64,000 nt of DNA from Candidatus Shapirobacteria bacterium (GTDB lineage: Bacteria; Patescibacteriota; Microgenomatia; UBA12405): assembly GCA_041659325.1 (NCBI GenBank), contig JBAZYN010000004.1, positions 583 to 64,582 on the forward strand, in the 5' to 3' direction. Shown here piece by piece: positions 24,980 through 59,008 of the stretch. Made by a program: the position numbers and the translations under genes. Numbering within the stretch: position 1 is the stretch's first letter; each line of letters starts with the position of its first letter. A model generated the notes under the pieces. That model did not search any database. It was not told the DNA's origin and saw only the letters and a program-made list of their open reading frames with translations.

Positions 24980-25048
24980 ATCATCTCAAAGACCCCCGTT
25001 TCCGTCGTCAAAAATATAAGCCATATATTATGTTACGATTAATTCATC

Positions 25049-34254: not shown

Positions 34255-37032
34255 GTGGTGAAAAAGATCATCTTTTTTCTATTCCTGTGGCTTGGGTCAA
34301 CTTCTGATTTACAGGCCGCCGACCTCCAAAGCACCTATCTTCGTCTGGACAGAAACAAAACCGGTCTTAGCCCCGGAAAAGTCTTGGTAGTCACCAAAAC
34401 AACTTCATCGGCTACCGAAGATGGTGTCAGAATTACCGTCGGCACCGGTTGGACTATTAACACTAATGCTTCTGCTTTTTCAGTTTCTACCATAAATTTA
34501 CCCGAAGGAGTTTCTGCCTGGCCGGGGATAGACACTGCTGTCGCGGTCAACGGCCAAGCAATCACTTTTCCCGGTGTCGACCTGGCTCCGGGCGAATTTT
34601 ATGGCTTCTATATTACCGGTGGAATAGGCGTAAACGGCCAGGTTAGCAGCAGCAACTATGTTTGGGAGGTTGCCACTTTAAGCGGTGGATTAGCCGACGG
34701 TACCATAGAGGTTGGGGTGCCGGTTGTGGCCGCTGATTCAATCACGGTAACTGGAACTGTTCCCGCCAATCCCTCAGATTATCCGGTCAGTATTTCCTCG
34801 GACCTTACCGGAAACGCGTCACAAAACCAGACACTCAACTATCAGATAGATTATGGTTCTTTATCTGCCGCCATTACCAAACCTCTGACCATAAAAGCCG
34901 AGTGGAGTCGTGGTACTCTGGAGAACTTTCCTATCCCGACTCTGGATATACTTGATTATGTAATCGGTAGCGGTACCAGTGCTTACAATGGGGTAGAGCC
35001 GGTAATAGATCTGATTGACCGGACAATTACCTGGACAATTCCCGATTTCCCGACAAACACTTTAGGTCAGACTGTTAGTTTCAGTCTGCAGACAAACGAT
35101 CAATATACCGGTTCCAGCCTAGTTAATTTCGATGTCAGTGTCACCGTCACTGCCGGTAACATCACGGTTGCTACCGACACAATAAACCAATATTATCAAT
35201 ACAATCCGCCATATTTATCACCAACTCCGACCCCGACCTCAATCCCCACTCCCACTTCTGTTTCCACTCCGGCTCCGACCTCTACCTCCACTCCCGCAAT
35301 TACTCTCGCTCCCGGTATTCCCACGGCCACGTCCGCCCCTGCAGCAACCTCGACTCCGGTTCAAGGCCCGACTCCCACCCCAAAACCTTTTAGGGAAAAG
35401 CTCAAAATAGAGAAAGTAGAAATAATAAATTTGTCCTCAAACGAGGCTGGAATCAGGGTAGCTACCAATATCCCTCTTGATAAATTAATTTTGACATATG
35501 GTTTAACTCCGAAAAAAATTACTCAAAAAATTATATTTTTAAAGCCGGATAATTTCGAAATATTTTTACTAACCAACCTTAATCCCCAAAACCTATATTA
35601 TTTTCGTTTGGAAGCACAAGCCGATACCGATAGATTGTTTTCGGATATTTTTACTTTCAAAACTCCCGCCGTTTCTGATCTTCCCGAAGTTGTAAAATCC
35701 ACTCTACTAGCGAATAGTGACGGTAAGGTTTTATATGACGCCGCCAGAATAGACAAAGAAATCAATGATTATTTGGTAATTATTCCCAAAGCGGTTGAAT
35801 ATTCTATTCAATTCCAGGTCGATAAACACGATTTGGTAAAGCAGGCTACCCTGATATTAAAAAGCCGCCAGGTTTTGGGGATTAGTAGCGCCTATGGAGC
35901 GGAACCCGCCAGTAGTTTAACTGATTTAATCGAAATTAGACCCGGTTGGTTCATGGGAAGACTTTTAAGTCCTTCAGAAGTAAGCTTCTATGAAATGTCC
36001 GTCAGACTGTCGGGTATCAACGGCACCATAATAGAAAACAAGTTGGCCGACATGGAAATAATCGAGCCGATGCGAATTTTGGAGTTGGAATCCCTTGCTC
36101 CCATTGAATCCGCCAAAGTCGAAATTAGTTTGTATAATTCAAAAGAAAAAAGGTTTTTAATAATCCCCCCAAACACTCTGTTGTCAGAAAATCCCGTATT
36201 TTCAGAAACAGACGGTGAAGTGGCTTTGGTTCTGCCAAGGGGTAAATATCGGGCCAAAGTCACTGCTTTGGGTTATTCAGAAAAACAAACCGAGTTTGAA
36301 ATTAGCGCTGGTGGCGATTTAAAGCTACCGTCAATTTATCTAGAAAAAGACAAATTTAATTTATTGGTAGTTGGCAGATATTACTCTGGTACTTTCACAG
36401 ATGTTTGGCAATATTGTAAAAACAACCTGAAATATCTATTTTCCTCCGGAAGATTTTTCAATCTAGTCGCCCTGATAAACTTGATTCTGCTGGTTATTAA
36501 TACCACTATATTTTATAGAAATAGCCTAAAAACTAACATTTTCGGAGGCAAAAACCGCGACGACTATATAGATGGAAAAATAAATGTCTCTGGAGCCGAT
36601 ATCATTCTGATTGATGCTGAAGCCAGTAGGATCCTGGCCAAAACCAAAAGCAATTGGTTGGGGCGCTTCCGTTTCAAGCTCAAACCGGCCAAAAGATATA
36701 AGTTGTCTGCCTCCAAAAGCGGATACGAGACTTCCCCGTTCTTTGAATATGTTGGCGATGAGGGAATTTTAGCAGGCGATATTAAAATCAATCTGAAAAG
36801 ATCAGAAGACAAACAAAAACTCAAATATATCCTCAACGAGTGGTTCTACTGGGAAATTTCAGATTTATCTACGGGGGTTTTAAACATTTCAGTCTTGTTG
36901 GTCGAAATACTTTTTATTAATAAATTCGGTTGGTCGGCAACCGCTATATGGATATTAATTGGTATATTAAATTTAATCTTGTGGTTAGTTTATACTTACA
37001 GAAATGGCAATAAAGTGGTGGCAAAACCTTAA
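34255..37032 (+). CDS. Large surface protein (925 aa): signal peptide, N-domain shared with the 38138 protein, PT linker, CarboxypepD_reg-like domain, C-terminal TM helices
   Basis: The N-terminus LRLDRNKTGLSPGKVLVVTKTTSSATEDGVRITVG is homologous to the 38138 protein. PT linker at about 35220-35400. GKINVSGADIILID...GYETS fold. Two C-terminal hydrophobic helices. Confidence 0.6.
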   Translation: MVKKIIFFLFLWLGSTSDLQAADLQSTYLRLDRNKTGLSPGKVLVVTKTTSSATEDGVRITVGTGWTINTNASAFSVSTINLPEGVSAWPGIDTAVAVNGQAITFPGVDLAPGEFYGFYITGGIGVNGQVSSSNYVWEVATLSGGLADGTIEVGVPVVAADSITVTGTVPANPSDYPVSISSDLTGNASQNQTLNYQIDYGSLSAAITKPLTIKAEWSRGTLENFPIPTLDILDYVIGSGTSAYNGVEPVIDLIDRTITWTIPDFPTNTLGQTVSFSLQTNDQYTGSSLVNFDVSVTVTAGNITVATDTINQYYQYNPPYLSPTPTPTSIPTPTSVSTPAPTSTSTPAITLAPGIPTATSAPAATSTPVQGPTPTPKPFREKLKIEKVEIINLSSNEAGIRVATNIPLDKLILTYGLTPKKITQKIIFLKPDNFEIFLLTNLNPQNLYYFRLEAQADTDRLFSDIFTFKTPAVSDLPEVVKSTLLANSDGKVLYDAARIDKEINDYLVIIPKAVEYSIQFQVDKHDLVKQATLILKSRQVLGISSAYGAEPASSLTDLIEIRPGWFMGRLLSPSEVSFYEMSVRLSGINGTIIENKLADMEIIEPMRILELESLAPIESAKVEISLYNSKEKRFLIIPPNTLLSENPVFSETDGEVALVLPRGKYRAKVTALGYSEKQTEFEISAGGDLKLPSIYLEKDKFNLLVVGRYYSGTFTDVWQYCKNNLKYLFSSGRFFNLVALINLILLVINTTIFYRNSLKTNIFGGKNRDDYIDGKINVSGADIILIDAEASRILAKTKSNWLGRFRFKLKPAKRYKLSASKSGYETSPFFEYVGDEGILAGDIKINLKRSEDKQKLKYILNEWFYWEISDLSTGVLNISVLLVEILFINKFGWSATAIWILIGILNLILWLVYTYRNGNKVVAKP

Positions 37033-38071
37033 ATTAAAGTGGCTAATATTTTCCTTTCTTATTCTGCCCGCCAGTACCAATTACAAACTGGAGGGTTTTA
37101 GTCTTGGAAACGCCGGGGGAGAAGTAATAGGTTCATCAAGTTATGAAATGGTCGGAAGTGTGGGTGAACTTTCAAGTAACAGCTTGTCGGGGGAAAGTTA
37201 TGATTTGGGGGTGGGGCTGGCCTGGGTTCGGCAATCAAACGTCCCTCCTGCCCCGGCAATCACCAATCCCGATAATTATTACAACAAGCTTCATCTGGTA
37301 ATAAACCGGGGTGATAACCCTGCCGATACAAAATATGCAATCGCTATCAGTAGCGATGACTTTACCACTACCCAATATGTTAAAAACGATCACACAATCG
37401 GAGCCACTTTGGTTTTAACGGATTATCAGACATATACGGAATGGGGTGCCGCAACCGGTATCGATATTATTGGATTAACCCCCTCAACCACCTATTCAGT
37501 AAAAGTAAAAGCTATGCAGGGCAAGTTTACTGAAACTGATTTTGGGCCGTTGGCATCTGTGGCAACCGTAGACCTCGAGCTTACTTTCGATATTGACGTC
37601 TCGGCATCCGACACTGAAACGGCCTCACCCTACATCATTTCTTTGGGGGATTTAACCCCGGGAAGTGTTAAAAGTAGTACCGAAAAAATTTGGGTTGATA
37701 TAGGGACAAATGCTACAAATGGAGCAAGTGTTTTTGTTTATGGTCAAAATGGTGGGCTGTACAGTTTGTCAGCCGGGTCAACTATTGCCGCCATTAGCGG
37801 AAATTTGTCGGAACTTCCCAAAGGCTTTGGCTCCCAAGGGGTAGGGGCCACTCAAAATAGCGGCGGACCGATAAATATTTCCTCTCCTTACAATGTAAAC
37901 AATGATGTGGTTGGAATTACCGATACAACTATACGACCGATTTTTTTATCTGAAAACCCGGTTAATGCGGGAAGGGCTAGATTTTTGGTTAAGGCCAAAG
38001 TGGATATAACTACCCCGGCCGCCGATGACTACAGCGAAACTTTAACTGTAATCGCCGCGGCAAATTACTAG
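37004..38071 (+). CDS. Secreted surface-associated protein (paralogous C-terminal motif shared with the 38138 protein)
   Basis: N-terminal hydrophobic signal. The C-terminus ...AADDYSETLTVIAAANY matches ...AASDYSDTLTVVGAGTF. Confidence 0.5.
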   Translation: MAIKWWQNLKLKWLIFSFLILPASTNYKLEGFSLGNAGGEVIGSSSYEMVGSVGELSSNSLSGESYDLGVGLAWVRQSNVPPAPAITNPDNYYNKLHLVINRGDNPADTKYAIAISSDDFTTTQYVKNDHTIGATLVLTDYQTYTEWGAATGIDIIGLTPSTTYSVKVKAMQGKFTETDFGPLASVATVDLELTFDIDVSASDTETASPYIISLGDLTPGSVKSSTEKIWVDIGTNATNGASVFVYGQNGGLYSLSAGSTIAAISGNLSELPKGFGSQGVGATQNSGGPINISSPYNVNNDVVGITDTTIRPIFLSENPVNAGRARFLVKAKVDITTPAADDYSETLTVIAAANY

Positions 38072-38137
38072 CAACTATCGCTTGACAAGATAGTCTAAAT
38101 AGCTCATATTTATACTTAGAAACGAGTTTATCAAACA

Positions 38138-39157
38138 ATGAAAAAAATAAAAGGCATTTTTTCTAGATGGAGTATCAGCTTAATTACCGCGATAACAATC
38201 TTCCTTGCTTTCGCCGCCACCGAGGTTAACGCAGCAAGTTTTTCCCACGCCTCCCTTCGCTACGACCGGATTAAAGCCGAGACCCTTTCCAGCCTTCAGG
38301 TGGTAATTGTTCCCGCGACAGTTGCAACCGAAGACAGAGTGGTCATAACCTTTGGCTCTGCCACCGTCGGTACCACCAACGCCACTTCGGTCACCAATAT
38401 ACCTACTGGCTCTGTAGCTCTTCCCGGCACTCTTTCTGCCGTAAGTGCCGGTACCACTATCGTTATTACTGGCGTTACCGATCTCACAGTCGGTACCACC
38501 TATGCTTTTAACCTGACAATCGGTGTCTCCACCCCGGCCGCAGGAACTGCAAACGATATTATTTCTACCCGAAGTGATGCTACTACCGTAATAGATCAAA
38601 CCACTGTCGCTTCAAGATATATCACCAACGATCAGATAGTTATCAACGCCGTCGTTCCCCCCTCTTTTAATTTTGTCTTAAGTGCCGGCAACACCGATAC
38701 TTTTACTGCTAATTTAAGTGGCACCACAGAAGTATCTACTTATGGTAATACGGTAACGGTTACAACAAATGCTCCAAGGGGATGGATCGCCTGGGTAAAA
38801 AGCGCCAATCAGGGTTTAGTTTCCCTGTCCACCGGTATCACTATTGCCACTACTGGAACCGTAAATGGTAGCCCCGACACGCTGACTGCCGGTGCTAATG
38901 GCTATGTCCTGGACGCCGATTTAACTAGCGATAATGGTACGGGTACAGGCACCGTAACTATCGCTCCCGAATACAACGGCGCTTCCGCCAAGGCCGGAGG
39001 AACTTTATCCGCTATTTTTCAGCCCTTTGCTTCATGTAACGGAACCACCGCCGGTGACGTTATCACCCTGATAGAAAGAGCCACGGTAACCACTATTTTA
39101 GCCGCTGCTTCGGATTATTCTGATACTCTAACGGTTGTTGGTGCGGGGACTTTTTAG
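38138..39157 (+). CDS. Secreted Thr/Gly/Ala-rich surface protein (N-domain shared with the 34255 protein, C-motif shared with the 37004 protein)
   Basis: Signal peptide ending ATEVNA. An SLRYDRIKAETLS...ATEDRVVITFG N-domain. A conserved C-terminal DYSDTLTV motif. Confidence 0.55.
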   Translation: MKKIKGIFSRWSISLITAITIFLAFAATEVNAASFSHASLRYDRIKAETLSSLQVVIVPATVATEDRVVITFGSATVGTTNATSVTNIPTGSVALPGTLSAVSAGTTIVITGVTDLTVGTTYAFNLTIGVSTPAAGTANDIISTRSDATTVIDQTTVASRYITNDQIVINAVVPPSFNFVLSAGNTDTFTANLSGTTEVSTYGNTVTVTTNAPRGWIAWVKSANQGLVSLSTGITIATTGTVNGSPDTLTAGANGYVLDADLTSDNGTGTGTVTIAPEYNGASAKAGGTLSAIFQPFASCNGTTAGDVITLIERATVTTILAAASDYSDTLTVVGAGTF

Positions 39158-39185
39158 ATAAATCTCCGGGGATTAATATATAATC

Positions 39186-40256
39186 TTGGTATCAATGATC
39201 AGCCACCGTTTCTTGGCAAAATTTTTTTTTGGTCTCATATTAGCCCCCTTGTTATTTTCCGGTCCAAAAGTCATTTGGGCCCAAACTACTGCCACCAACA
39301 GCGAACTGAATTTAATCACCTCGCCCCTGCCGATAAATTTGGTAACCGAGCCCGGGGCTACGGTTTCTGCTGATCTGAAAATTCAAAATGGTGGAATTGT
39401 CACCGAACAGCTAAAAGTTGAAGTCCTAAAATTCAACGCCTACGGAGATGACGGATACCCAAGGCTGATAGATCGTCAACCCGGTGACTCATTTCTGGAT
39501 TGGGTATCATTTTCGGAAAATTCTTTTGAACTTGCTCCCAAACAGTGGAAAACCATCACGGCCACTTTTTCCATCCCCCCCGATGCTGCTTTTGGCTATT
39601 ACTATGCTATAACTTTTTCCCGAGCCGAAAACATCAAGGCCGATGGTGGGGGACAAACTTCCATTACCGGCGCTACTGCTACCCTCATTCTTTTAGAGGT
39701 TCGGGTCCCAAATGCCAAAAGAGAGGTCGAAGTCATGGAGTTGTCCACCGATAAGAAAATTTATGAATTTTTACCGGCCAACTTTCAGATAAAACTGAAA
39801 AATAAAGGTAACGTTCATCTTTCTCCCCGCGGAAATATTTTTATCGACCGAGGCAACCAGCGTGATGTTGCCATTTTGGAAATAAATCCCGAAAAAGGTA
39901 GTCTTTTACCCGATTCAAACCGCGTTTTCAGCACTAAATGGGCTGATGGTTTTCCTCTTTACCGGGAAAAAGTTAAGGACGGAAAAGTAGTCTTAAACAA
40001 AAAAAATGAAAGCGAGAAAGTACTCGAGTGGGATTTTAGCCAAACTCACAAATTACGTTGGGGAAAATTTTCAGCCAAAATGCTTATTGTTTACGACAAC
40101 GGAGAAAGGGACATCCCCATCGAAGGTATTGTCAGTTTTTGGGTAATTCCCTGGCGGCTTGTCAGCGCCGCCGGAGCCATAATTCTTTTAACCATCGTCG
40201 GTTTATGGTCAACTTTGGGAAAAATACTCATGAAGTTAATCAACAGAAAAAAATGA
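39186..40256 (+). CDS. C-terminally TM-anchored cell-surface protein, paralog A (DUF916/DUF3324-like architecture)
   Basis: Signal peptide, the motif KNKGNVHLSPRGNIFID, a C-terminal TM (AGAIILLTIVGLW) and a basic tail. There is an ATGA overlap with the next gene. Confidence 0.55.
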   Translation: MVSMISHRFLAKFFFGLILAPLLFSGPKVIWAQTTATNSELNLITSPLPINLVTEPGATVSADLKIQNGGIVTEQLKVEVLKFNAYGDDGYPRLIDRQPGDSFLDWVSFSENSFELAPKQWKTITATFSIPPDAAFGYYYAITFSRAENIKADGGGQTSITGATATLILLEVRVPNAKREVEVMELSTDKKIYEFLPANFQIKLKNKGNVHLSPRGNIFIDRGNQRDVAILEINPEKGSLLPDSNRVFSTKWADGFPLYREKVKDGKVVLNKKNESEKVLEWDFSQTHKLRWGKFSAKMLIVYDNGERDIPIEGIVSFWVIPWRLVSAAGAIILLTIVGLWSTLGKILMKLINRKK

Positions 40257-41194
40257 TCAGCGGCCAAAAATGTTTTGGTTTAATATTTTTTTTAGGCCTA
40301 ATTGTTTCGCTCCTTCCGATCCGAGTTTCAGGTCAGCAGAAAAAAATCCAAACCGGTATAAGTATTGCTCCGCCGTTTACGGAATTAGTTTTTGACAAGC
40401 TTGACAAAGAAAAAAACTTTATCTTAACTATCACCAACCATGGCCACAAATCCGAAGTGTTCAGGCTGTCGGTAGTCGACTTAGGCGGGCTTGAAGAATC
40501 AGCCGGAGTTCCGTTTTTGGGGACAAAAAACTCAGAATTAGAAAAAAAATATTCCTTAAGTTCGTGGATAATTTTGGGTAAAGACGCTCTGGTAGTCGAT
40601 CCCCAAAAAAAAGTTGACATAAAAATCACCATCCAAAACAAAGAATCCTTGTCCCCGGGAGGTCATTACGGCGCCGTAATTGTTAAACTGGATAATTCCG
40701 ACAAATCCGGTACCGATGTCGTGGAGGTGAATCAAAATTTTGCCTCTCTTATCTTTGTCAAAAAAATCGGTGGCGAGATATATGACTTAAAGCTTAACCA
40801 AACAACAATCCAAAATTCTTATCTAAAGATACCGGACACAATAGAGCTCAGATTTCAAAATTCCGGCAATATCCATGTCGTCCCCCGCGGTACGCTGGAA
40901 TTAAAAGATCCCTCCGGCCGTTTGATCGCAAAAGGGGTTATAAACAAGGCCTCTTCCATTATCCTGCCCGAGTCCTTCCGAACTTATCAAAACAGAATCA
41001 ATCAGTTAAAACCGGCCTGGTTACCGGGAAAATACCACCTTACGGTCAATTATCGATTTGATGGGTCAGACCAAATATCATCTCTGACAAAAGATTACCT
41101 ATACCTAGGTTGGCTGCCGTATGCCGTCTTCGGCGTCACTATCGTCACTTGGTTTTGGTTTTTAAGGTCCAAAAAATCTAAAAAACAAGAATAA
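40253..41194 (+). CDS. C-terminally TM-anchored cell-surface protein, paralog B
   Basis: Signal peptide MISGQKCFGLIFFLGLIVSLLP, the motif QNSGNIHVVPRGTLELKD, a C-terminal TM and the tail RSKKSKKQE. The ORF-track start at 40058 is inside the upstream gene. Confidence 0.55.
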   Translation: MISGQKCFGLIFFLGLIVSLLPIRVSGQQKKIQTGISIAPPFTELVFDKLDKEKNFILTITNHGHKSEVFRLSVVDLGGLEESAGVPFLGTKNSELEKKYSLSSWIILGKDALVVDPQKKVDIKITIQNKESLSPGGHYGAVIVKLDNSDKSGTDVVEVNQNFASLIFVKKIGGEIYDLKLNQTTIQNSYLKIPDTIELRFQNSGNIHVVPRGTLELKDPSGRLIAKGVINKASSIILPESFRTYQNRINQLKPAWLPGKYHLTVNYRFDGSDQISSLTKDYLYLGWLPYAVFGVTIVTWFWFLRSKKSKKQE

Positions 41195-41312
41195 AAAAAT
41201 CGCTAACTATCGCCATATTTATAATATTTGAATTTGATATCTAAAGATATCTTTTAAATAGACATCGTTTTCACTATAGTACACAGTAAGGGCTGTTATA
41301 TCGGGCCTAGTC

Positions 41313-42626
41313 TTGACGTATATGGGAAAGTTTATTATAAAAATCTGGTCAATCTTCTGTTTAATAATTTTTTGGGTATATTTCTGTCTCTCACCTGTTT
41401 CCGCGGCAATTTACGAAAGGGTGAATTTTCAGGGTAAAGTAGTCAATAAATCCGTCGGCGAAACAGACGGCACCAATGTCCCCGACGGCGATTACGATTT
41501 TGTTTTCACCATTTACCCGGCCCTTAGCACCGGCTCTTCTCTTTGGACCGAGACCTGGGATAGTGGTACAGCTCAGGTAGCAGTTACTAGCGGAGTATTT
41601 AACGTTAATTTAGGCACCCAACTGACCTTTCCCGCCAATCTTTTTGAAAGTGATAGTTTATTTTTGGCCATAAATTTTAACGCCGATGGCGACATGACTC
41701 CCAGGATTCGGCTCACTTCTGTTCCCTATGCTTTTAGTGCCGGCAAAGTTGCCGGCTTAACCATAGATAGCATTGGAGTTACCCTTGACCAAAGTTTAGC
41801 TACTACCAATTCACCCACTTTTTCGGGTCTAAATATTGGCACCTCTCTGTCGGTTGCGGCCAATGTAAACGTCGGCGGCACCTTAATTTTTTCCGCTACC
41901 GGCGTAAATATCGACGCCGTCACCGCCCAAGGGTTAATTTTTCAGGGGAGGAATTCTTCCTCTTTTAACACCACTAGCGGTGACATTACTCTCAATCCTG
42001 CCGGTTCAGTCATAATCGGTACCGGCACCAGTACTTTTACCTTCAACCCTCTTTCCGGTCCGCTCTATTCAGGCTCGGCCCGACCTTCAAAAACAATCAG
42101 AATTTCACCGGAATACCCCGGAGCTTCAATGACTGCCGATGGCTCCACCGATATTGGTGGTACCATGACTTCCGACAACACCCTAAACGCCGGTGGCATC
42201 GGCTGGAAAAATTATTATCAGTGGTCATCCGGCAATGCTGCCTTACAGGACTATTCGGTTTTGGCCCGAGTTGCCCTTCCCTCTGATTTTGATACCTGGG
42301 AAACCGGCTCTTGTCCGGGAGCTGCCTGTGCTTTTGAAATAGAATTCCAAACCGGGGTCGGCACCACCGACGATAATTATATTTCTGTCGCCGTCAACAA
42401 TAACTCCGACACTCCCGGCACCGCCGTCTGTTCAATTGGCTCAACCGCCGCTACCGCCTGGACCTTAACTGGTTGCCCTGAAGCCACCTTAAATGATGGG
42501 TCTTCTTCAGAGTGGGATGCGGCCGGAGAAGCGGCCGTTGTTCGTATCAAATTGGCGGCAAAAAGTACCGAAAATGCCTTATCTCGGGTAGGGGACATCA
42601 TTTTAAGGTACAAGGCAAAATTCTAA
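41313..42626 (+). CDS. Secreted hypothetical surface protein
   Basis: N-terminal signal and a beta-rich Thr/Gly/Ser composition. A TAATG stop/start overlap with the giant gene. Confidence 0.5.
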   Translation: MTYMGKFIIKIWSIFCLIIFWVYFCLSPVSAAIYERVNFQGKVVNKSVGETDGTNVPDGDYDFVFTIYPALSTGSSLWTETWDSGTAQVAVTSGVFNVNLGTQLTFPANLFESDSLFLAINFNADGDMTPRIRLTSVPYAFSAGKVAGLTIDSIGVTLDQSLATTNSPTFSGLNIGTSLSVAANVNVGGTLIFSATGVNIDAVTAQGLIFQGRNSSSFNTTSGDITLNPAGSVIIGTGTSTFTFNPLSGPLYSGSARPSKTIRISPEYPGASMTADGSTDIGGTMTSDNTLNAGGIGWKNYYQWSSGNAALQDYSVLARVALPSDFDTWETGSCPGAACAFEIEFQTGVGTTDDNYISVAVNNNSDTPGTAVCSIGSTAATAWTLTGCPEATLNDGSSSEWDAAGEAAVVRIKLAAKSTENALSRVGDIILRYKAKF

Positions 42627-45600
42627 TGAAAATTTTTTCGCCCCTCCCTAAGTTAAAAAAAACCCTCTCGCTATTTCTCTTGACCGGCCTGGTATTTTTT
42701 TCCTTTTTATCTACCCCCACCCTTTTGGCCCAGGATGCGGCTCCTGCTATATCCGTAGACCCCGCTGTATCAATCTCTCCACCTTCCCCAGAGTCCTATT
42801 CTGATTCACCCGAAGCCAACAACTCAGCCAGACTTCGTCCTAGCTTTAAACTGGAAACTTACGACACCAATCCGGTTTTCAGTAAATCAAAACCTGAGTT
42901 TAAACTAGTCTCCGGCACCAAATTTAAACCAAGAATCAAGGTGTACAATAATTCAAAACAGGAAATCGATATTGAGCTCGTTGAAAAAGTCGACAAGGGC
43001 GATGTTGTTTATAGCTTCAATCAAGCCACAGAAATTCCCCCCGGTAAATATACAATCACATTTCAAGATGATCTCGGCGGCGAAATATCGAAAGATTTTT
43101 ACTGGGGAGTTTTGGCCATCAATTTCAACAAATCCGTTTATAACCCGCTGGAAAACGGTTACATTTCTCTTGCCGTTTTAGACGAAACCGGCGACATGGT
43201 CTGTGATGCCAAGTTAGCCCTGATTGTCGAAGAACCAGATGGTTCAGTCGAAGAGTTAACCACCGATGATGGCCGCATCAAGGTCAACCCCGAATGTCAG
43301 GTTCATGGCTTTACGGAAAAGCCGGATTATGAAACCGAATATGCTTTTAGTGAAAATCCGGGCACATACAAATTTCACCTTGTCGCCGAAACCAAAAATG
43401 GTTCTTATAGTATTACCGATCAGGTTCAGGTAGCCGAAAACTTACCTATCGAAGTCGACCGGGTTATGGCTACCCGCATTTATCCCCCCCACCCTTATAC
43501 TGCCACTATTAATCTAAAGGCAAATGAAGATTTTATCGGAATAGTCACGGAAACCGTCCCCTCAAGTTTCATTATCACCAAAGCCGCCAATACCGAAATT
43601 TTACCCTACAAAACCATAGTTGAAGACAAAAACTCAAAGACAAAAAAAATTACCTGGAATTTAGACCTAAAACCAGGCGAAGATGTCACTATCGGTTATC
43701 GATACGATATCCCCGATATCTCGCCCGAATTTTATCTGGTTGGGCCGATAAAGTTTACCGATTATAGCGGTACTGTTGATTTTTTTACCGAAACCCGTCA
43801 ATGGCAATTGGCGGCCGATGCCGTAGCTCCTGTAAAAATCCGGCAAGAAATTAATATTATTAACGGTTTAGTTACTGCCGCTGGGGTTGATGCCGCCATA
43901 GTAAATCTGGATACCGCCAAATATAACAGTGCCACTTATTATTTTGAAGTAATTGCCAAGGTCAGTGCCGGCACCTTAACCGTCAACCTCAGTACCGGAA
44001 ACACCAATACCGTTGGTATCGGTATCAGTGATACTAGCTTTGTCAGAGTTCGGTCGGCTTTTACCCCCGAAAGCGGTTCTTTTGACTACCGACTTAATTT
44101 AGTAAACGGGACCTCGCCACAGGTGAAAGCCGCCAGAATCATTATTTTACAAAGCGCCACTACTATTACTGCCACTCAAACCCAGATTGAAATCGGCAAT
44201 TTGGAAATCGGTTTATCCATGGCGACGACGGCTCCCCTTACCAGCCCAAAATATTGGAAATATGATTCAGCTTTGTGGGATGGGACAAAAACATTTGATA
44301 TCAGCGTTTCATATAAAGCCGGCGTGGGGGTCACGGCCGGTTCCCAAACTTTTACAGTAGCAGGTATCAATACTTTTACCCCACCTGGTGGCATAACCTC
44401 AGTCAAGGTCGAATGTTGGGGCGGCGGCGGCGCCGGTGGAAGTTCCAACACCACCACCGACGGTTGCGGTGGCGGTGGCGGTGGTGCCTATTCCAATAAA
44501 TTAAATGTGGGTGTCACAGCTGGAATTGGCTATACCGCTTTTGTCGGAGTCGGCGGTACCTATAGATCTCAAGCCAAAGGAGGCGATGGCGCCGCCAGCT
44601 ATTTTCGAAATAGCGTCGGCGTGACTGTTGTCTCGGCCGCCGGAGGAATCGGCGGCACTTCTCAAGCCAGTAGCAATCCGGGAGCCGGTGGAGCTGGCGG
44701 TAACTCCACCGTTGGTGTTGGAGATACCAAATGGAGCGGAGGAACAGGTGGTAGAGGCTATAATGCTTCGGCAGGGCAGGGAGGTCCGGGTGGTAGCTCA
44801 GCCGGAATTGGAACCACGGGCCGGTCTGGTCCGGATCCCTGGTCAACCAGAGTTGCCAGTGCCGGCCCTACTGGTAGTGGTATCGGCGGTAGTGGTGGCC
44901 CGGCTGGTAACAGCGGTGCAGCCCCGGCCAGTGGAAATGGCGGCGGCGGCGGCGGCTCCGGCGATGTGGCAACCAGTGTCGGTGGAAACGGCGCCGGTGG
45001 GAAAGTAGTAGTTACTTGGGCCGCAATAGATAACGCAGTTTCAATTTATCTTCAGGAAGACAACGGTTCTTTTGCCGGCTGGACAAATGTCGTCACTGTT
45101 TTAAGCGGTGGTACCGCCACCGTCCCGACTTCGGTGGGCATTACAAACTTTACCCCTACCACCGGTAGAAATTATCGACTCGTTGCCAATACTGGTCTCA
45201 GTCCTTTTGATATTTATAATGCCAAAATTATTGTTAATCAAACCAGTGCTACTACTATTGACAAGCTAGTTCCCCAATATTTGTTGCTAAATACAAAATC
45301 AACCACCACCGGCAGTGCTTTAGGTTATCAAAGTTTATGGACCACCGACGAATGGGGCCGGACTACCAATACCTATCTGCATGCCTTTGACTCCATCGGT
45401 GGCGGCACCACCGCCACTGTTAAGCTCGTTGATATTGATGCCGGAAATGCTGAATTAACCAATTCCGCCATTGGCGGGACAAATCAAGTAATTAGTAATG
45501 GCATAACAATGCCCACTTCCGGTCATCAAATAGATACCTGGCTGACCGCCGCCGGAACCGAAGTCGACGCTTCGAGAATTTTGGTTCAAGTTGACGTAAC

Positions 45601-48600
45601 GGCAGTTCAAAATCCGACCGTTGTTCTCAACAGTCTCGACAATGGCGCCACCACTACTGATACCACCCCGACTTTGGATTTTACCGGCACTAGTGCCTAC
45701 GGAGATAGTGTCAGATATAACATTCAGATAGCCACCAACGACCTATTTTCTTCTAGCATAATCACTCAAACCTCGGTTCTGTCTCAAGGCACCGAGACGG
45801 ACGCCAGTTCGTACGATACCGCCAGTATTTCCCCCGGTGCTAATAAATTAGTCCTTCTAGCCGTGGCCTCCCGGGTGGCTGGCGGCGGAAACAATACCCC
45901 TACCGCCAGTGGTGTTGGCATGAGCTGGGATTTAGTCACCACAGTTCAGGAACCCGGCAGCTGGAATAGGATTAGTCTTCTTCGAGCCATGAGTCCGTCG
46001 CCTTCTTCCGGGGCTATCACCATTTCTTTTGGTGGTCAAACTCAAACAGCTGTAAACTGGCAAATTTCCGAGTTTTCAAATGTTGATACTTCGGGGACAA
46101 ACGGTGCTAGCGCCATCGGTCAGTCACAAACCAACACCGGTGCTTCCGTTACTAGTCTCACCGTTACCTTGGGTGCTTTTCAAAGTACCAATAACGCCAC
46201 CTATGGGGCTATGATCTCTGAGGTCGCCTCTCCCATCAACCAGGGTACTGGATTTACTGAAGTTTATGATTTAAGTGTTACCGATAGCGCTCTGGAAACA
46301 GAGTGGAAAGATAGCAACGATACTTCGGTGGATTGGTCTTTTACTCAGGGCAGGGTCGGCGGAATTGCCGTCGAAATAAAAGCGGCTCCATCTGCCCTCG
46401 ATAAAGTTTCCGGTACCGATGTCGGTTTTTCCGGATCTCCGGATAATACAGATCCTTTTACATCCGCCCAAGCCGTAAATTATACCGTTGAGGAGGGAGA
46501 TAGCTTGGCGGTAGGCACTTATTACTGGCGAGTCAGAGGTATAGATCCAGATGGGAGCAATGCTTACGGCTCGTGGAGTGATACCCGTAATTTTGTGGTA
46601 AGCATGGCTGCCAATGTGACTATTTCGGGAAATATCTATACCACCGAAACCGCCACTGCCTACAACTGTTCATCCACCAACCTAACAGTTCGGGCCATAG
46701 TCGAGGGAGCCGGAGTCGGTACTACCGGTATTTGTACCTCCGGTGGTGGGGCATTTCTTATCCAAAATATCACCGTTGGTGATACCGGTCATGTAATTAC
46801 CTTATATTTAGACGGAGAATCAGAGAAAGCCACCTCCATTACCAAAGTTGCCAGCACCTCTATAGGATTTACCCTTCCCCTTTATCAAAACCGGGTATAT
46901 CTTAGTCACCAAAATGACGGGCCGATTACCAATGCAGATATCGATAAATATGATAGCGCCAACGATGCCGATATCCAATATACCTCAAACGGTGTCGGTC
47001 TCACCGTTACCCCGGGCTCCAAAATTGTTATCGCCCTTGGAAAAACCTATACTCCCGGCGGAAGTATTGACACCCCCTCAATCGGCATCGGTGGAACTTT
47101 CAACCCGGAGTCGAACACTGTTAATCTAACTGGAAGCGGCAGCAGCATCACCTGTACCGATGCCCCGGGGACAGTCATGCCTCTATGTAATAGTGGTACT
47201 TTTAACCAGTCAACCTCAACCATCAATTACAACGGGACTTCCGCTTCTGCCATCGCCGCTCTTACCTTCAATAATCTGGGTGTGGGTATTTCCTCCGAGG
47301 CGGGAGTCGGCACTACCTATACCTTTACCGGTAACGTCACAGTCGGCGGTATCTTCTCTATCGGAAATATCTTGTCATCAAATATCGATGTTGTAAATGC
47401 TTCCTCCCACACTCTTACTCTAACTCAGGCAGATACTCCGCTAAATGCTACTCCCAAGGGTGCTCTTGCTCCGGGAAGCTCGACTGTCGTTTACACTGCC
47501 TCCGCAGATACCAGCGTTGCGACTGTTGACTATTACAACCTTTCTCTGGCCCCTGCCTCAGGCACACCCACTTATACTCTTTTAAACGTTTGGGAATATA
47601 GAAGACCAATAGCAATTACCAATGCCTCGGGCGGGGACCTAACCGACTTTCAGGTTTCCTTTACTTTGGACACCACCGACAGTACTAGATTTCAGCCGGA
47701 TTGTGATGATATAAGAATCACCGACTCAAGTGGTATTACCATTCTTCCTCATTGGATCGAAGAAAACAATCCCGGTTGTGGCAATGCCTCTACCAAAATT
47801 TGGACCAAAGTTCCCTCTATTCCCACTGCCGGCACAACCATCTATGTTTATTACGGCAATCCCATTGCTTCATCATCGCAAAACGGTACGAGTGTTTTTG
47901 AGTTTTTCGACGATTTTAGTGGCGATAGCCTAGACACACAAAAATGGACAAAAGTTAATGGCTCAACTCCGGTTCTTGCCTCCGGCACCTTGGCCATTAC
48001 CGCCACCGCCGACCCGGGTAAATTAATTGCCTCTGCCGGCCCCAATGGCGACAACTACATTTTAAAAGCCAGATTTATGGTTACCGGCGGCTCTGCCGAC
48101 GATGAAAGGTTGGGTCTAAGCGTAAAAACCAATACCTCAAGCGGAGCTGGCTACAATCTGGTTTTTAGGGGCTTTACCAACCTGTCAACGGTTCAGTTTT
48201 TACATGACGCAGTTGAGTGGGGCAGCGCAGACACTGTCAATTGGGCCAAAGACACATATTATACCGAAGAAATTTATCATGACGGAACAAATGTCAAAGG
48301 TCGTTTTAACGACGGTTCCTGGTACAGTTGGCCCAGAAGCGGAATATCCGGCTATTTGGCGATAAATTTTGCTAGTTTTAACGGTACAACTAGTATCTGG
48401 GATTATGCTGTTATTAGGAAAGCGGCTTCAACTGAACCCTCCTCCTCCGTCCAGGCAGAACAGGGTGTAACCAACACTGATATATTAACCGTCCACAATG
48501 ATTTTTCTACTTCAGGCGCCGGTACCGTAACTGTCAATGTAGAGACAAACAACAGTGCCACCCTGGATATTAATGGGGATTTTACTCTGGCTTCCGGCGA

Positions 48601-51600
48601 TACCTTTCTGGCCCCTCCCACTACGTCTATAGCCGGCGGCTATACCAACAATGGTACCTTTACCGCCAATTCTGGAAAAGTTACTTTTGACGGAACCGGA
48701 AGCAATACCCTATCTGGTTATATGAATGTCGGATCTGGCTCAACCTCTCCTTTCTATAAAGTGGTCTTTAGCGGCATCGGTGGCAGTTGGACCATTGCCG
48801 ACCCCATAAAAATCGGAGCTACCAATGCTACCGATACCCTATTAATAAACGCCGGAGTTGTTACCTTGGGCAATGGAAACGGTGATGATATGGAGGTCGA
48901 TGGAAAAATGAATATCGGTTCTACTGTCGGTCTGGCAATTTTTCAAACCATGGATGGTCTTGCCCAGGGCAGTGTCATCAATCTTGATATCAACAGCAAT
49001 ACCGCTCCGTTTAATTGTACTAACTGTTTGGTTCAAGTAGGCACAGCCGACAACACCGCCCCCCAGGGGACTTTTGTCATCAATGAAAACACCAACCTTC
49101 GATTAAATTCTTTCTCCAGCATTCAGTCGGGTCTGGATATTTATGCCTCGGGGAAAATAACTATTCGGGGTCTTCAGTCAGACACCGGCGCTGATAGCGG
49201 CACCGACACTACTTCCGCCGCCACCAGAGAAAGCAAAGTGTGTGTTGTCAAACCCGGCTGGGAAAACGACAGCCACAATAATAAAAACCTAAGAATCACC
49301 TCCGGCCTTGCCTTTGGGAAAATATACACTATCTCGGACACTATTACCAACGATTCCGATTGTGCCTCCGATACTGATGAGTCGCTGACTATCAACGATA
49401 CTTCCGTTCCCTCCGGGGCTAGCACTGCCGTCGTAAGCTCAATCACCACCGTCTTATCGCAAAGATGGGTTTGTTCCAATGCCACCACATATATTTCCGC
49501 GGATAATAAAGAGATAGGCAGATATCTACACGATCTGTCGGGTGTCACCGGTTATTACAAGATTGTCGACTCCACCAATAATGATGCTACCAACTGTTCG
49601 GGTAATGATAGGTTCAGGATTATGGCTGATCCTGCTGCTGAATTTGCCAGTCTGCAAACCAGTGATACTTTTAAAATTGTCGATGGTATTAGGTCCGATG
49701 ACACCTTTGAAATAATTGATTATGCCTCTATTACGGCCCAAAATGGTGTCGCCTGTAACTCATCGTTCAACGGCTATATCCTGGGAAGAAACCGTTCAGA
49801 AGTAGATATCCAATATTCAGATATTTGCAATATGGGAGCTTCCGATGAATATAAAACCGGAATCATGCTTGGCTACTCTTCGGCGGGCACCGACGGCTCT
49901 CTGCAAAACGAAGGGTTTGCAATTTCCAAGTCAAGGATAAGAAATGGTCACAATGGAATTGTTTTTTATTATGCGGACAATAATTCCGGAGCCAAAGGTA
50001 TCTCCGACAATTATATTTCAGGACATGCATCTTTCGGAATTGACTTTTACTACGGTGCCGACAACAATAGTGTTACTTCAAACACTGTTTGTGGCAATTT
50101 TCAAAACATTTATTTTAGGAATAATTCAAATAACAACACCGTATCTTCTAATATTATTTGTGAAGCCACCACCTTTGCCGGAATTGTTTTATATGATTCG
50201 CTAAGCGGTAATATCGTCTCTTCAAATACTATTTACAACAACGCCCAACATGGTATCTATACTGGCACTAACGCCATAGACAACACCTTTTCATCAAACA
50301 CCGTCTTCGGCAACCAATTAAGTGGAATTACTCTTGACAGTGCCCACATGACCAAAGTATCGGGCAACACGGTAAACAACTCTCAATATCATGGGATATA
50401 TATAATCGGAGGGTCAAAGGGCAATATCATTTCGTCAAACAACGTTTTTGGTCAAGACGCTGGTATTTATCTTTATAATTCTGCCAACAACAATCTTTTG
50501 TACACCAATAATTCATACAACAATGCCTACGGTTTACAATCGGGTTCTAACTCGACAAACAATGTATTTTTCGGAAATGATTATTACTCTAATACTAGCT
50601 ATGGTAGCTATAATAATGACGGTTTTAGTAATAATGTTTTCTATAATGATTCGTTTTATGGCAATATATTCGGCTGGATTGACAATGGTGCCTCAAATTT
50701 AAATAACATCCTTATAAACAATAGTTTCGGAGTCGGAACAGAAAATGGTTTCTACGATATCTATCAAATAGGATCTGCTCCCCATTCTACGCATTTATAT
50801 AGCTCGACTGTTAATTCCACCGTTGAGGCCGACGGAATTATCTACCCCGGCTCATCAATTATCTCCCGCTCTCACGATGGAGTAGCCGGTGCTACCAAAA
50901 TCTGGGGAGAATATTCCACTTCATCAAATAACTCCGAAACGCCACAGGATGAAGGGTTAGAAAGATATAATTATGCCGATTCCTCCTGGCCCGACTCAAT
51001 TACCGACCCGGGGTTTTCCGGTATCGGAACCTCAGACACCGATCTAAATCTTGGCTTCGCCGGAGGTACCTTAGGCGGGGGGACTTCAGCCGCCTTTGTC
51101 TACCGGGTTTACTGCACTGTCACCAACTGTGTCACCTCCCCCAACTCGTGGGGGGTTGAAAGAGATGGGATAGGTTTGGGTACCTCCGCCTCTAGCGGCG
51201 TTGGCTATACCGACCCTGGCACCAATATCTCGTTTAAAATCGATGATTCCGGAACAGATTTTGCCCTGGGTGATACCTACACCTTTGTTGCCTTCAGGGG
51301 TAGTACTGACACCAATACTCAAAAAACTATAACAATGGCCCAGGATGGGGATTTAATAAATGTTGGTGCCGGTACTACTCTCCGGGCAATCGGGGTCGGC
51401 GGTAGCCACACCTTGATCACCCGTGGTGGATCGGGCGGCTACCACATTAATGTCGCCGGAACCCTTGATGCTAGCTACTATACTTTAAGTTATTTAGGAG
51501 GAACCGACGGAAATTTAGGGCTTGATTTACAAAGTGGTTCTCTGATTACTAATTTAGCCAACGGTGTCTTTGATAATTTCCAAGATGTCGGATCATCGGA

Positions 51601-51934
51601 CACTTATATTAGAGTTCACAGTGATCTGATTGGGGTAGGAAGTCCGACCAAGACTTTTAGTGATTTAACCTTTACTCAAAACGGTTCCGGTGCTCCGGAA
51701 TTTACCGTCACCGAATCCGGAGGCAGCTCCCCGGCCGACGATCGTTACTGGCAGTTTGAAAATTCTGTCTGTAGTTCTTGGGCTTCCTGTGAAGATTCCG
51801 ACCTCGAACAAAACACCAACAGCGGTGGTAGCATCCGTTGGGATGCCATTATTCCTACCAGCCCTATTCTTGATCAGCTTATGCGCCACGGCCAGTGGTT
51901 TTTTGGCGGTCTCAAACAGCCGTTTACTTTTTAA
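42626..51934 (+). CDS. Giant secreted surface protein (3103 aa): Ig-like regions, Gly-rich segment, DUF2341-like domain, LamG/concanavalin-like domain, PbH1 parallel beta-helix repeats
   Basis: Signal peptide MKIFSPLPKLKKTLSLFLLTGLVFFSFLSTPTLLAQD. DUF2341-like YRRPIAITNASGG...DIRITD...LPHWIEE...IWTKVP...TIYVYYGN at about 47597-47890. A Gly-rich run at 44400-45000. N-rich beta-helix repeats at about 49930-50720. The ORF-track start at 42512 overlaps the upstream gene. Confidence 0.75.
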   Translation: MKIFSPLPKLKKTLSLFLLTGLVFFSFLSTPTLLAQDAAPAISVDPAVSISPPSPESYSDSPEANNSARLRPSFKLETYDTNPVFSKSKPEFKLVSGTKFKPRIKVYNNSKQEIDIELVEKVDKGDVVYSFNQATEIPPGKYTITFQDDLGGEISKDFYWGVLAINFNKSVYNPLENGYISLAVLDETGDMVCDAKLALIVEEPDGSVEELTTDDGRIKVNPECQVHGFTEKPDYETEYAFSENPGTYKFHLVAETKNGSYSITDQVQVAENLPIEVDRVMATRIYPPHPYTATINLKANEDFIGIVTETVPSSFIITKAANTEILPYKTIVEDKNSKTKKITWNLDLKPGEDVTIGYRYDIPDISPEFYLVGPIKFTDYSGTVDFFTETRQWQLAADAVAPVKIRQEINIINGLVTAAGVDAAIVNLDTAKYNSATYYFEVIAKVSAGTLTVNLSTGNTNTVGIGISDTSFVRVRSAFTPESGSFDYRLNLVNGTSPQVKAARIIILQSATTITATQTQIEIGNLEIGLSMATTAPLTSPKYWKYDSALWDGTKTFDISVSYKAGVGVTAGSQTFTVAGINTFTPPGGITSVKVECWGGGGAGGSSNTTTDGCGGGGGGAYSNKLNVGVTAGIGYTAFVGVGGTYRSQAKGGDGAASYFRNSVGVTVVSAAGGIGGTSQASSNPGAGGAGGNSTVGVGDTKWSGGTGGRGYNASAGQGGPGGSSAGIGTTGRSGPDPWSTRVASAGPTGSGIGGSGGPAGNSGAAPASGNGGGGGGSGDVATSVGGNGAGGKVVVTWAAIDNAVSIYLQEDNGSFAGWTNVVTVLSGGTATVPTSVGITNFTPTTGRNYRLVANTGLSPFDIYNAKIIVNQTSATTIDKLVPQYLLLNTKSTTTGSALGYQSLWTTDEWGRTTNTYLHAFDSIGGGTTATVKLVDIDAGNAELTNSAIGGTNQVISNGITMPTSGHQIDTWLTAAGTEVDASRILVQVDVTAVQNPTVVLNSLDNGATTTDTTPTLDFTGTSAYGDSVRYNIQIATNDLFSSSIITQTSVLSQGTETDASSYDTASISPGANKLVLLAVASRVAGGGNNTPTASGVGMSWDLVTTVQEPGSWNRISLLRAMSPSPSSGAITISFGGQTQTAVNWQISEFSNVDTSGTNGASAIGQSQTNTGASVTSLTVTLGAFQSTNNATYGAMISEVASPINQGTGFTEVYDLSVTDSALETEWKDSNDTSVDWSFTQGRVGGIAVEIKAAPSALDKVSGTDVGFSGSPDNTDPFTSAQAVNYTVEEGDSLAVGTYYWRVRGIDPDGSNAYGSWSDTRNFVVSMAANVTISGNIYTTETATAYNCSSTNLTVRAIVEGAGVGTTGICTSGGGAFLIQNITVGDTGHVITLYLDGESEKATSITKVASTSIGFTLPLYQNRVYLSHQNDGPITNADIDKYDSANDADIQYTSNGVGLTVTPGSKIVIALGKTYTPGGSIDTPSIGIGGTFNPESNTVNLTGSGSSITCTDAPGTVMPLCNSGTFNQSTSTINYNGTSASAIAALTFNNLGVGISSEAGVGTTYTFTGNVTVGGIFSIGNILSSNIDVVNASSHTLTLTQADTPLNATPKGALAPGSSTVVYTASADTSVATVDYYNLSLAPASGTPTYTLLNVWEYRRPIAITNASGGDLTDFQVSFTLDTTDSTRFQPDCDDIRITDSSGITILPHWIEENNPGCGNASTKIWTKVPSIPTAGTTIYVYYGNPIASSSQNGTSVFEFFDDFSGDSLDTQKWTKVNGSTPVLASGTLAITATADPGKLIASAGPNGDNYILKARFMVTGGSADDERLGLSVKTNTSSGAGYNLVFRGFTNLSTVQFLHDAVEWGSADTVNWAKDTYYTEEIYHDGTNVKGRFNDGSWYSWPRSGISGYLAINFASFNGTTSIWDYAVIRKAASTEPSSSVQAEQGVTNTDILTVHNDFSTSGAGTVTVNVETNNSATLDINGDFTLASGDTFLAPPTTSIAGGYTNNGTFTANSGKVTFDGTGSNTLSGYMNVGSGSTSPFYKVVFSGIGGSWTIADPIKIGATNATDTLLINAGVVTLGNGNGDDMEVDGKMNIGSTVGLAIFQTMDGLAQGSVINLDINSNTAPFNCTNCLVQVGTADNTAPQGTFVINENTNLRLNSFSSIQSGLDIYASGKITIRGLQSDTGADSGTDTTSAATRESKVCVVKPGWENDSHNNKNLRITSGLAFGKIYTISDTITNDSDCASDTDESLTINDTSVPSGASTAVVSSITTVLSQRWVCSNATTYISADNKEIGRYLHDLSGVTGYYKIVDSTNNDATNCSGNDRFRIMADPAAEFASLQTSDTFKIVDGIRSDDTFEIIDYASITAQNGVACNSSFNGYILGRNRSEVDIQYSDICNMGASDEYKTGIMLGYSSAGTDGSLQNEGFAISKSRIRNGHNGIVFYYADNNSGAKGISDNYISGHASFGIDFYYGADNNSVTSNTVCGNFQNIYFRNNSNNNTVSSNIICEATTFAGIVLYDSLSGNIVSSNTIYNNAQHGIYTGTNAIDNTFSSNTVFGNQLSGITLDSAHMTKVSGNTVNNSQYHGIYIIGGSKGNIISSNNVFGQDAGIYLYNSANNNLLYTNNSYNNAYGLQSGSNSTNNVFFGNDYYSNTSYGSYNNDGFSNNVFYNDSFYGNIFGWIDNGASNLNNILINNSFGVGTENGFYDIYQIGSAPHSTHLYSSTVNSTVEADGIIYPGSSIISRSHDGVAGATKIWGEYSTSSNNSETPQDEGLERYNYADSSWPDSITDPGFSGIGTSDTDLNLGFAGGTLGGGTSAAFVYRVYCTVTNCVTSPNSWGVERDGIGLGTSASSGVGYTDPGTNISFKIDDSGTDFALGDTYTFVAFRGSTDTNTQKTITMAQDGDLINVGAGTTLRAIGVGGSHTLITRGGSGGYHINVAGTLDASYYTLSYLGGTDGNLGLDLQSGSLITNLANGVFDNFQDVGSSDTYIRVHSDLIGVGSPTKTFSDLTFTQNGSGAPEFTVTESGGSSPADDRYWQFENSVCSSWASCEDSDLEQNTNSGGSIRWDAIIPTSPILDQLMRHGQWFFGGLKQPFTF

Positions 51935-58939: not shown

Positions 58940-59008
58940 TCAAAGCCCCCCGTCGTCTTTCTCTGTGATAAAATTCACTTGTACCAGATATTAGTTAAAA
59001 ATCTAACA

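Follow-up and report, generated by a model that had tools for sequence, protein, structure and literature searches.

A block of co-directional genes in a 64,000-nucleotide (nt) stretch of DNA from a Candidatus Shapirobacteria bacterium (GenBank assembly GCA_041659325.1, contig JBAZYN010000004.1, positions 583 to 64,582 of the forward strand; this whole stretch is called the window below) is probably a Pam-type pilus operon of a Candidate Phyla Radiation (CPR) bacterium, whose filament would assemble by donor-strand exchange. CPR bacteria, or Patescibacteria, make up a large share of bacterial diversity and are mostly attached to other cells, and the means by which they hold their hosts are largely unknown. 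The gene set is among the best-conserved CPR surface systems, with three of its products (G2, G3 and G4) about 50% identical between classes, and through its link to the Pam pilus, proteins labelled hypothetical in thousands of genomes acquire names and testable roles.

The Pam pilus is described by Troman et al. (bioRxiv 10.64898/2026.03.03.709456), who report cryogenic electron microscopy structures of the Candidatus Mycosynbacter amalyticus pilins PamA and PamB (PDB 25PZ and 25QA). According to that work (10.64898/2026.03.03.709456), Pam pilins have two domains, the C-domain takes the linker of a neighbouring subunit, and conservation is highest in the linker and at the C-domain site. Further products of the operon are PamC and PamD, which are FimC/PapD-like and unusually carry a C-terminal transmembrane (TM) helix, a third pilin, PamE, and a tip pilin without a linker, PamT. 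PamR, which combines two FnIII domains with a C-terminal TM helix and has an additional strand at its N-terminus, is put forward as terminator and anchor. The operon often has a tail-fibre-like protein and ATP synthase genes close by, homologues occur in CPR bacteria only, mainly in Saccharimonadia and Microgenomatia, and CPR cells lack an outer membrane (10.64898/2026.03.03.709456).

The block consists of seven consecutive plus-strand genes, G1 to G7 (34255-51934), and the open reading frame (ORF) listing and translations bear out the initial annotation in that their products are exclusively secreted or membrane-anchored. All seven products have a signal-like hydrophobic N-terminal segment, a TM helix forms the C-terminal end of G4 and of G5, and three TM segments lie close to the C-terminus of G1. 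The start/stop overlaps can be read directly from the DNA: 29 nt between G1 and G2, ATGA at 40253-40256 between G4 and G5, and TAATG at 42624-42628 between G6 and G7. No enzyme family in Pfam or NCBIfam matched any of the seven proteins, and the same scans gave nothing above threshold for G2 to G6. Domain scans and gene order in relatives uphold the picture of a dedicated, syntenic cell-surface appendage or adhesion gene set without enzymes. The epithet "undescribed" has to be dropped, because the 2026 preprint (10.64898/2026.03.03.709456) describes Pam pili with such an architecture and NCBIfam already has a PamT model that matches the G2 family. The end that had been placed at 51934 has to move as well, since two co-directional genes, X4 and X3, follow at gaps of 35 and 10 nt and are syntenic in relatives.

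Pilin-like modules of G3, G2 and G1

G3 (38138-39157, plus strand, 339 amino acids (aa)) is the candidate major pilin. Its signal peptide is followed by an N-terminal beta-sandwich (aa 33-161), a linker (aa 162-181, YITNDQIVINAVVPPSFNFV) and a C-terminal beta domain (aa 182-339) that ends in DYSDTLTVVGAGTF. The AlphaFold2 (AF2) monomer model, built from 39 sequences, has a mean predicted local distance difference test score (pLDDT) of 92; its strands run across aa 37-161 and 177-337 and make up two beta domains, and aa 162-176 of the linker have no secondary structure. Information content in the family alignment (39 sequences) is 3.48 bits in the linker, 3.13 in the C-domain and 2.69 in the N-domain, with conservation maxima at aa 167-176 in the linker (YITNDQIVINAVVPPSF) and at aa 327-334 in the last strand (DYSDTLTVVGAG). 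It is these two strands that donor-strand exchange would bring together. The family is large (1019 clusters at 50% identity for E ≤ 1e-3, and 293 for E ≤ 1e-30), and its members differ in cysteine content, with 1 cysteine in the window copy and 2 or 4 in most relatives. Fold-search matches of G3 are generic Ig-like adhesin or pilin domains (YcnI, alpha-2-macroglobulin domains, MSCRAMM N2N3 and cohesins), and no Pam entry is among them. Some family members (P0294, P0305, P0309, P0331 and P0417) reach 784-1641 aa and carry a complete pilin (N-domain, linker and C-domain) at the C-terminus with a large N-terminal extension ahead of it. They may be adhesin-pilin fusions comparable to FimH/PapG, or gene-calling fusions.

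G2 (37004-38071, plus strand, 355 aa) is a candidate tip or minor pilin that comprises a signal peptide, a PamT-like N-terminal module (aa 22-71), an fn3-like domain and a pilin-type C-domain (aa 187-355) with the end DYSETLTVIAAANY. What had been annotated as a C-terminal motif common to G2 and G3 extends over a whole domain of ~160 aa (BLASTP E 1e-6; hhalign E 3.5e-14), which ends in DY(S/T)(D/E)TLTV...(F/Y) in both. The hhalign alignment of G2 with G3 begins at G3 residue 171, and G2 therefore lacks the first (DDQIVV) half of the linker. The NCBIfam model NF058579 ("CPR-type pilus protein PamT") matches G2 with E 0.008 and 15.6 bits, and it matches 37 of the 52 G2-family members, with a best E of 2.8e-10 and up to 33.9 bits among the members listed. 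The equivalog cut-off of this model is 240 bits; because the score lies far below it and the profile is only partly covered, G2 is not an orthologue or equivalog of PamT by the NCBI criterion. It shares a module with PamT instead.

G1 (34255-37032, plus strand, 925 aa) is a candidate pilus base anchor or terminator. A signal peptide, a pilin-type N-domain with linker (aa 14-182), a complete Ig-like domain, a Pro/Thr-rich stalk (aa 317-375), an fn3/CarboxypepD_reg region (CarboxypepD_reg being a Pfam match) and TM helices at aa 728-755, 870-889 and 891-915 follow one another along the protein. The N-terminal domain that G1 was said to have in common with G3 is found by BLASTP (E 7e-10) and by profile-profile comparison (probability 99.95%, E 2e-38, 160 columns). 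With hhalign, family against family, aa 14-182 of G1 align to aa 25-184 of G3, that is, to the N-domain and linker only. The full linker is retained with the consensus NxQIxVTAxV, and past it G1 diverges from G3 into a different Ig-like domain. The 44 detected members of the G1 family are about 900 aa long, keep this architecture and come from Microgenomates-type CPR bacteria, the named ones being Levybacteria or "Patescibacteria group". In P0277 and P0283 the N-domain is missing and the linker motif stands straight after the signal peptide (VRA followed by DEDIAVTGTVPP, and AQA followed by VRELDITATVPA). The constant element of the G1 family is therefore the strand and not the N-domain. By analogy, the strand of these two proteins would stand at the place of the N-terminal extension of chaperone-usher pilins and of the extra strand reported for PamR.

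The three proteins draw on one set of modules: G3 has N-domain, linker and C-domain, G2 has the C-domain and part of the linker, and G1 has the N-domain and full linker with no acceptor C-domain. From this distribution we infer that G2, as acceptor only, would be the tip, G3, as donor and acceptor, the shaft, and G1, as donor only, the membrane anchor or terminator. A donor-only G1 would give a concrete answer to the problem of pilus termination and anchoring in a cell without usher or sortase.

Membrane-tethered PapD-like proteins

G4 (39195-40256, plus strand, 353 aa; 356 aa with an alternative TTG start at 39186) is a candidate membrane-tethered PapD-like chaperone, and G5 (40253-41194, plus strand, 313 aa) is its divergent paralogue with a C-terminal TM helix of its own. 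The tandem paralogy of the two had been noticed before and is borne out by BLASTP (E 5e-10) and hhalign (probability 96.7%); with the G1/G3 and G2/G3 relationships, all three paralogies are, by these comparisons, stronger than the initial annotation put them. G4 has a signal peptide, two beta-sandwich domains, the first with a low-confidence loop at aa 148-156, and a C-terminal TM helix at aa ~320-352. Its AF2 model (42-sequence alignment, mean pLDDT 83) has the two beta-sandwich domains and a long C-terminal helix. The fold is PapD-like, and with the TM helix at its end the chaperone feature of the PamC and PamD type is present. G5 always comes directly after G4, with a median overlap of 4 nt, and is either a second chaperone or a PamR-like terminator or anchor.

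Tethered two-domain proteins are also found in Firmicutes, where WxLIP (DUF916, DUF3324 and a TM helix) is predicted to complete the beta-sandwich of its WxL partner with a strand (PMC10599100; PDB 9i1y, 9i25). The block could on this model be a static WxL/WxLIP-like surface complex, in which G4 and G5 would hold G2 and G3 by completing a beta-sandwich with a strand, G6 and G7 would be displayed beside them, and no polymer would form. Weak matches to PF06030 (WxLIP_PGBD) in 17 of 42 G4-family members (best E 0.0016), and the same weak match for the G4-like gene of locus L085, speak for such a complex, as does the combination in G4 of two Ig-like domains, a C-terminal TM helix and a disordered domain-1 loop, which resembles the AF2-predicted WxLIP hairpin loop that completes WxL (PMC10599100). 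The likeness to WxL/DUF916-DUF3324 loci that had been suggested earlier is sustained to this extent and no further: DUF3324 (PF11797) has no match in the G4 family, an LPXTG partner was not found, and the Pfam WxL family was not found among 81 members of the G2 and G3 families at E ≤ 5 nor in the seven proteins. A static complex also leaves unexplained the linker as the most conserved pilin segment, the separate membrane family that presents this linker, and the module that G2 has in common with the Pam tip pilin. It is, in our judgement, distinctly unlikely.

The block is WxLIP-like in one respect and is not a WxL cluster. As had been stated, WxL motifs are absent, with no W-x-L tripeptide in G2 or G3. 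The C-terminal DY(S/T)xTLTV of these two proteins was considered as a degenerate WxL motif and rejected, given the Pfam result for the 81 family members. The tethered chaperones may share ancestry with Firmicutes WxLIP, in which case a single membrane-anchored strand-complementation machinery would have branched into WxL clusters and CPR pili. The structural tie between the tethered chaperone and WxLIP points to strand complementation by membrane-anchored PapD-like proteins as a general monoderm strategy.

Gene order, variable cargo and neighbourhood

The synteny scan used one genome per GTDB species and two strict G4 peptide patterns, which 242 species matched. The counts given here cover the best 80 loci from these species, which come from Saccharimonadia, Moranbacteria and Microgenomates and were treated by ORF calling and BLAST against the window proteins. 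In nearly every locus that is not cut by a contig end, G2 comes first, followed by one to three copies of G3, one or two of G4, then G5 and a gene with a G6-like N-terminus, always on one strand. Under a stricter filter that removes overlapping ORFs, all five families are present in 43 of the 80 loci, and the median G4-to-G5 and G4-to-G4 junction is a 4-nt overlap. Identity between the window and a Saccharibacteria metagenome-assembled genome (MAG) is 50% for G2, 52% for G3, 47% for G4 and 32% for G5. The synteny check that had been proposed with the initial annotation found core genes that are neither scattered nor non-syntenic, with an order kept across CPR loci. Because this order recurs in 80 loci of different CPR species, with the core on one strand and a 4-nt G4-to-G5 overlap, the arrangement is highly non-random, far beyond chance, and the feature is real.

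Such conservation bears on a further explanation, in which the block is a loose cluster of independent, co-transcribed adhesins or wall proteins (with Ig-like, fn3 and beta-helix domains) that form no joint structure and owe their pilus likeness to the ubiquity of Ig-like folds. It would account for the generic fold matches of G3, for the linkage of G1 and G7 to the core, which is not universal, and for the mosaic, fast-evolving character of G7. It is very unlikely in view of the strict order and strand kept across CPR classes, the ~50% identity of G2, G3 and G4 between Microgenomates and Saccharimonadia, which is unusually high for surface proteins, the conserved translational coupling, and the structured way in which donor and acceptor modules are spread over G1, G2 and G3. 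Among the 80 loci, G1 and G7 adjoin the core only in those of Shapirobacteria type (L046, L071, L072 and L086), and L019 has rearranged G1- and G7-like genes; both G1 and G7 are confined to Microgenomates. The locus of a close relative, L086, contains all nine genes in the same order as the window.

G6 (41322-42626, plus strand, 434 aa; 437 aa with an alternative TTG start at 41313) is a secreted protein with a "tail-fibre-like" N-terminal domain at aa ~27-145, which carries the motif GINxQINFQGK...WTE...VTDGIFQxNLG...PYAFNA. A domain of this type (~120 residues) heads the gene after G5 in at least 65 of the 80 loci and is fused to C-terminal regions of 181-2756 aa; it has no Pfam match and no significant PDB sequence match. 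The N-terminus of G6 was also considered as a donor strand, its INxQINFQGK being linker-like by eye, and the idea was rejected when hhalign against the G3 family aligned signal peptides only (probability 25%).

G7 (42626-51934, plus strand) is a secreted mosaic giant and candidate adhesin of 3102 aa, one fewer than the 3103 first given. Pfam confirms two of its three annotated module types, DUF2341 at aa 1692-1776 and a parallel beta-helix (Beta_helix/NosD) at aa 2385-2674, and adds Gly_rich_2 at aa 578-798. The LamG-like module is not borne out, with no Laminin_G family at E ≤ 0.1. There is no significant PDB sequence match, and only the N-terminal ~530 aa and aa 750-994 are common to the downstream proteins of the close relatives L046, L072 and L086. 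GC content rises to 0.52 at 44001-46000, compared with about 0.44 elsewhere, in an interval that overlaps the glycine-rich domain (aa 578-798, nt 44357-45019) and the Gly/Ala/Ser-rich sequence around it. The rise can be sufficiently explained by codon composition, and foreign DNA need not be invoked.

X4 (51970-52656, plus strand) encodes an N-terminally anchored protein with a LytR_C domain (Pfam, E 1.2e-6). Its homologues (39% identity, E 5e-38) lie downstream of a G6-like or G7 gene in 19 loci, and L086 has one in the same position. The product of X3 (52667-53218, plus strand) is small, a TM segment at its N-terminus being followed by an ectodomain of about 150 aa, and belongs to a family of about 208 aa that lies inside the cluster in 54 of the 80 loci, adjoining G2 or between G5 and G6. 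The window copy matches this family with E 3e-8 and is 40% identical to the L086 copy (E 8e-38); X3 has no Pfam match and no significant PDB sequence match. By these homologies and positions, X3 and X4 belong to the system.

Named homologues are from Shapiro-, Gottesman-, Levy-, Moran-, Sacchari- and Parcubacteria or "Patescibacteria group", and the families appear restricted to CPR bacteria. G3 and G4 of the window have identical proteins in NCBI under Candidatus Shapirobacteria (Patescibacteria, Microgenomates group), and the contig turns up in SRR18595301 as well. Ca. Mycosynbacter amalyticus is not among the best 80 loci from the 242 species. Some MAG titles name other phyla (Bdellovibrionales, Gammaproteobacteria, Burkholderiaceae, Terrimonas and Limnocylindria; L006, L011, L013, L021, L024, L026, L027, L029 and others). 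Their loci have the CPR-type order, and the taxonomic label is probably wrong or the contig mis-binned. A more far-reaching reading takes G2, G3, G4 and G5, with X3 and the G6-like giant, as an ancestral, CPR-wide monoderm donor-strand pilus that differs from the M. amalyticus Pam operon and occurs far more widely. The parts not yet described would then be the G1 anchors, X3 and the tail-fibre-like N-domain that heads hypervariable giant adhesins. We put this forward tentatively, as possible and on the unlikely side.

Within the block no tandem repeats were found, and intrinsic terminators are not above shuffled expectation (23 found, 23.8 expected). Promoter-like sites, which are consensus matches only, lie in the gaps before G1, G3, G4 and G6. 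The best sigma-70-like matches in the block (10/12 positions) are at 38082-38110 before G3 and at 39155-39184 before G4, again as consensus matches only. Internal promoters at such sites could raise expression of the candidate major pilin G3. Just upstream of the core, many Moranbacteria-type loci (L029, L032, L034, L045, L053 and L054) have a type IV pilin-like gene, a histidine kinase and a response regulator (clusters x7, x8 and x9). Homologues of these clusters occur in the window 23-32 kb upstream of G1, at 11424-11906, 5609-7027 and 2565-2921 (minus strand), and the association hints at co-regulation of, or a functional tie between, type IV pilin-like genes and the pilus core. In two Microgenomates-type loci (L085 at 3272-3969 and L087 at 1119-1831), G2 is immediately preceded by an HTH_17 gene of about 95 aa and a second gene of about 140 aa, which may be a dedicated regulator pair. 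The window has no such pair at that position and has instead a divergently oriented zf_Tbcl_2 gene at 33694-34170. Wall- or glycan-acting genes lie further upstream at 20665-26266, encoding a 1083-aa protein with two polysaccharide deacetylase domains and CBM_4_9, a GH26-like protein (minus strand) and an NAGPA phosphodiester glycosidase. At 58979-61798, 7 kb downstream of G7, a 939-aa surface protein has three CARDB and three CarboxypepD_reg domains.

Putative assembly and comparison with known systems

Architecture and homologies are what the data establish, and all assembly steps are read from them. Filament assembly would be Sec-dependent and proceed by donor-strand exchange, without usher or sortase, with Sec as the route of all components across the membrane. 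On the outside of the membrane G4, and possibly G5, would be held by the C-terminal helix and would cap the open groove of the pilin C-domain in the manner of PapD. The fibre would be started by G2 as tip, in which the acceptor C-domain and the PamT-like N-module are present and the DDQIVV half of the linker is missing. G3 subunits would join in turn, the conserved linker strand of each going into the C-domain of the previous subunit. G1 would end and anchor the fibre, having N-domain and linker, no acceptor C-domain, a Pro/Thr-rich stalk and three TM helices. G6, with its tail-fibre-like N-domain, and the mosaic giant G7 would be the variable adhesive cargo of the locus, and X3 and X4 would be conserved membrane-anchored accessory proteins. 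By analogy, host attachment is a plausible function.

Several points weigh against a Pam-type pilus. No filament has been observed in this organism; strand insertion is deduced from conservation and analogy. The PamT match spans ~65 N-terminal residues (profile positions 16-84 of 241) and is below the equivalog cut-off, and neither the G3 nor the G4 family is matched by any NCBIfam Pam model. The likeness to PamA to PamE and PamR is drawn from the descriptions in the preprint and not from their sequences or structures, and the reference system comes from a preprint that itself models part of the assembly (10.64898/2026.03.03.709456). G1 homologues are sometimes unlinked from the core (L083 and L084), and most CPR lineages have the core without G1. 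In L085 a G1 homologue lies 0.9 kb downstream of the core, with ATP synthase genes nearby.

Chaperone-usher pili (Pap, Fim, Csu, CFA/I and Ecp) resemble the block in the donor-strand complementation and exchange proposed for it, in their tip-shaft-terminator logic and in a conserved C-terminal pilin strand that ends in an aromatic residue. They differ from it in that the block has no usher or outer membrane, its chaperones are TM-tethered and not soluble in the periplasm, and its pilins have two domains, with an internal linker as donor strand in place of an N-terminal extension, except in two G1-family members. That the block is a classical chaperone-usher or sortase-type pilus which has been mis-recognised is scarcely conceivable: besides these differences in chaperones, pilins and cell envelope, no usher family (Pfam and NCBIfam scans) and no sortase family matched the nine proteins, and none has a C-terminal LPXTG-type signal, the sole pattern match being internal, in G7. 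Firmicutes WxL clusters have in common with the block two Ig-like domains with a C-terminal TM helix, and an operon with small and large secreted partners in a monoderm. The partners in the block are instead pilin-like, each with its own conserved donor linker, and no polymer is proposed for WxL.

The Pam pilus is the closest of these systems, and the block departs from it in several respects. A sequence link is detectable for the PamT N-module only, far under the cut-off; a single major pilin in the window stands against PamA, PamB and PamE in M. amalyticus; and the window G3 has 1 cysteine, compared with 2-3 cysteine pairs in the preprint. G1 is a multi-pass protein of ~900 aa with a whole pilin N-domain, whereas PamR has two FnIII domains and one TM helix. 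The Pam description does not include X3, X4 or the giant G7, and the 10 kb to either side of the block contain no ATP synthase genes, although L085 has them. Because only one module of PamT is matched, the set of pilins is not the same, the anchor is another kind of protein, and X3, X4 and G7 are without described counterparts, the block is a variant rather than a plain Pam member. Common to both are a Sec-secreted pilin with an N-terminal beta-sandwich, a single linker and an Ig-like C-domain (open in Pam), the linker and C-domain as the most conserved regions, and PapD/FimC-like proteins with a C-terminal TM helix. Both also have a tip-type protein with the PamT N-module, a proposed membrane-anchored donor-strand protein, a tail-fibre-like neighbour and an apparent restriction to CPR bacteria.

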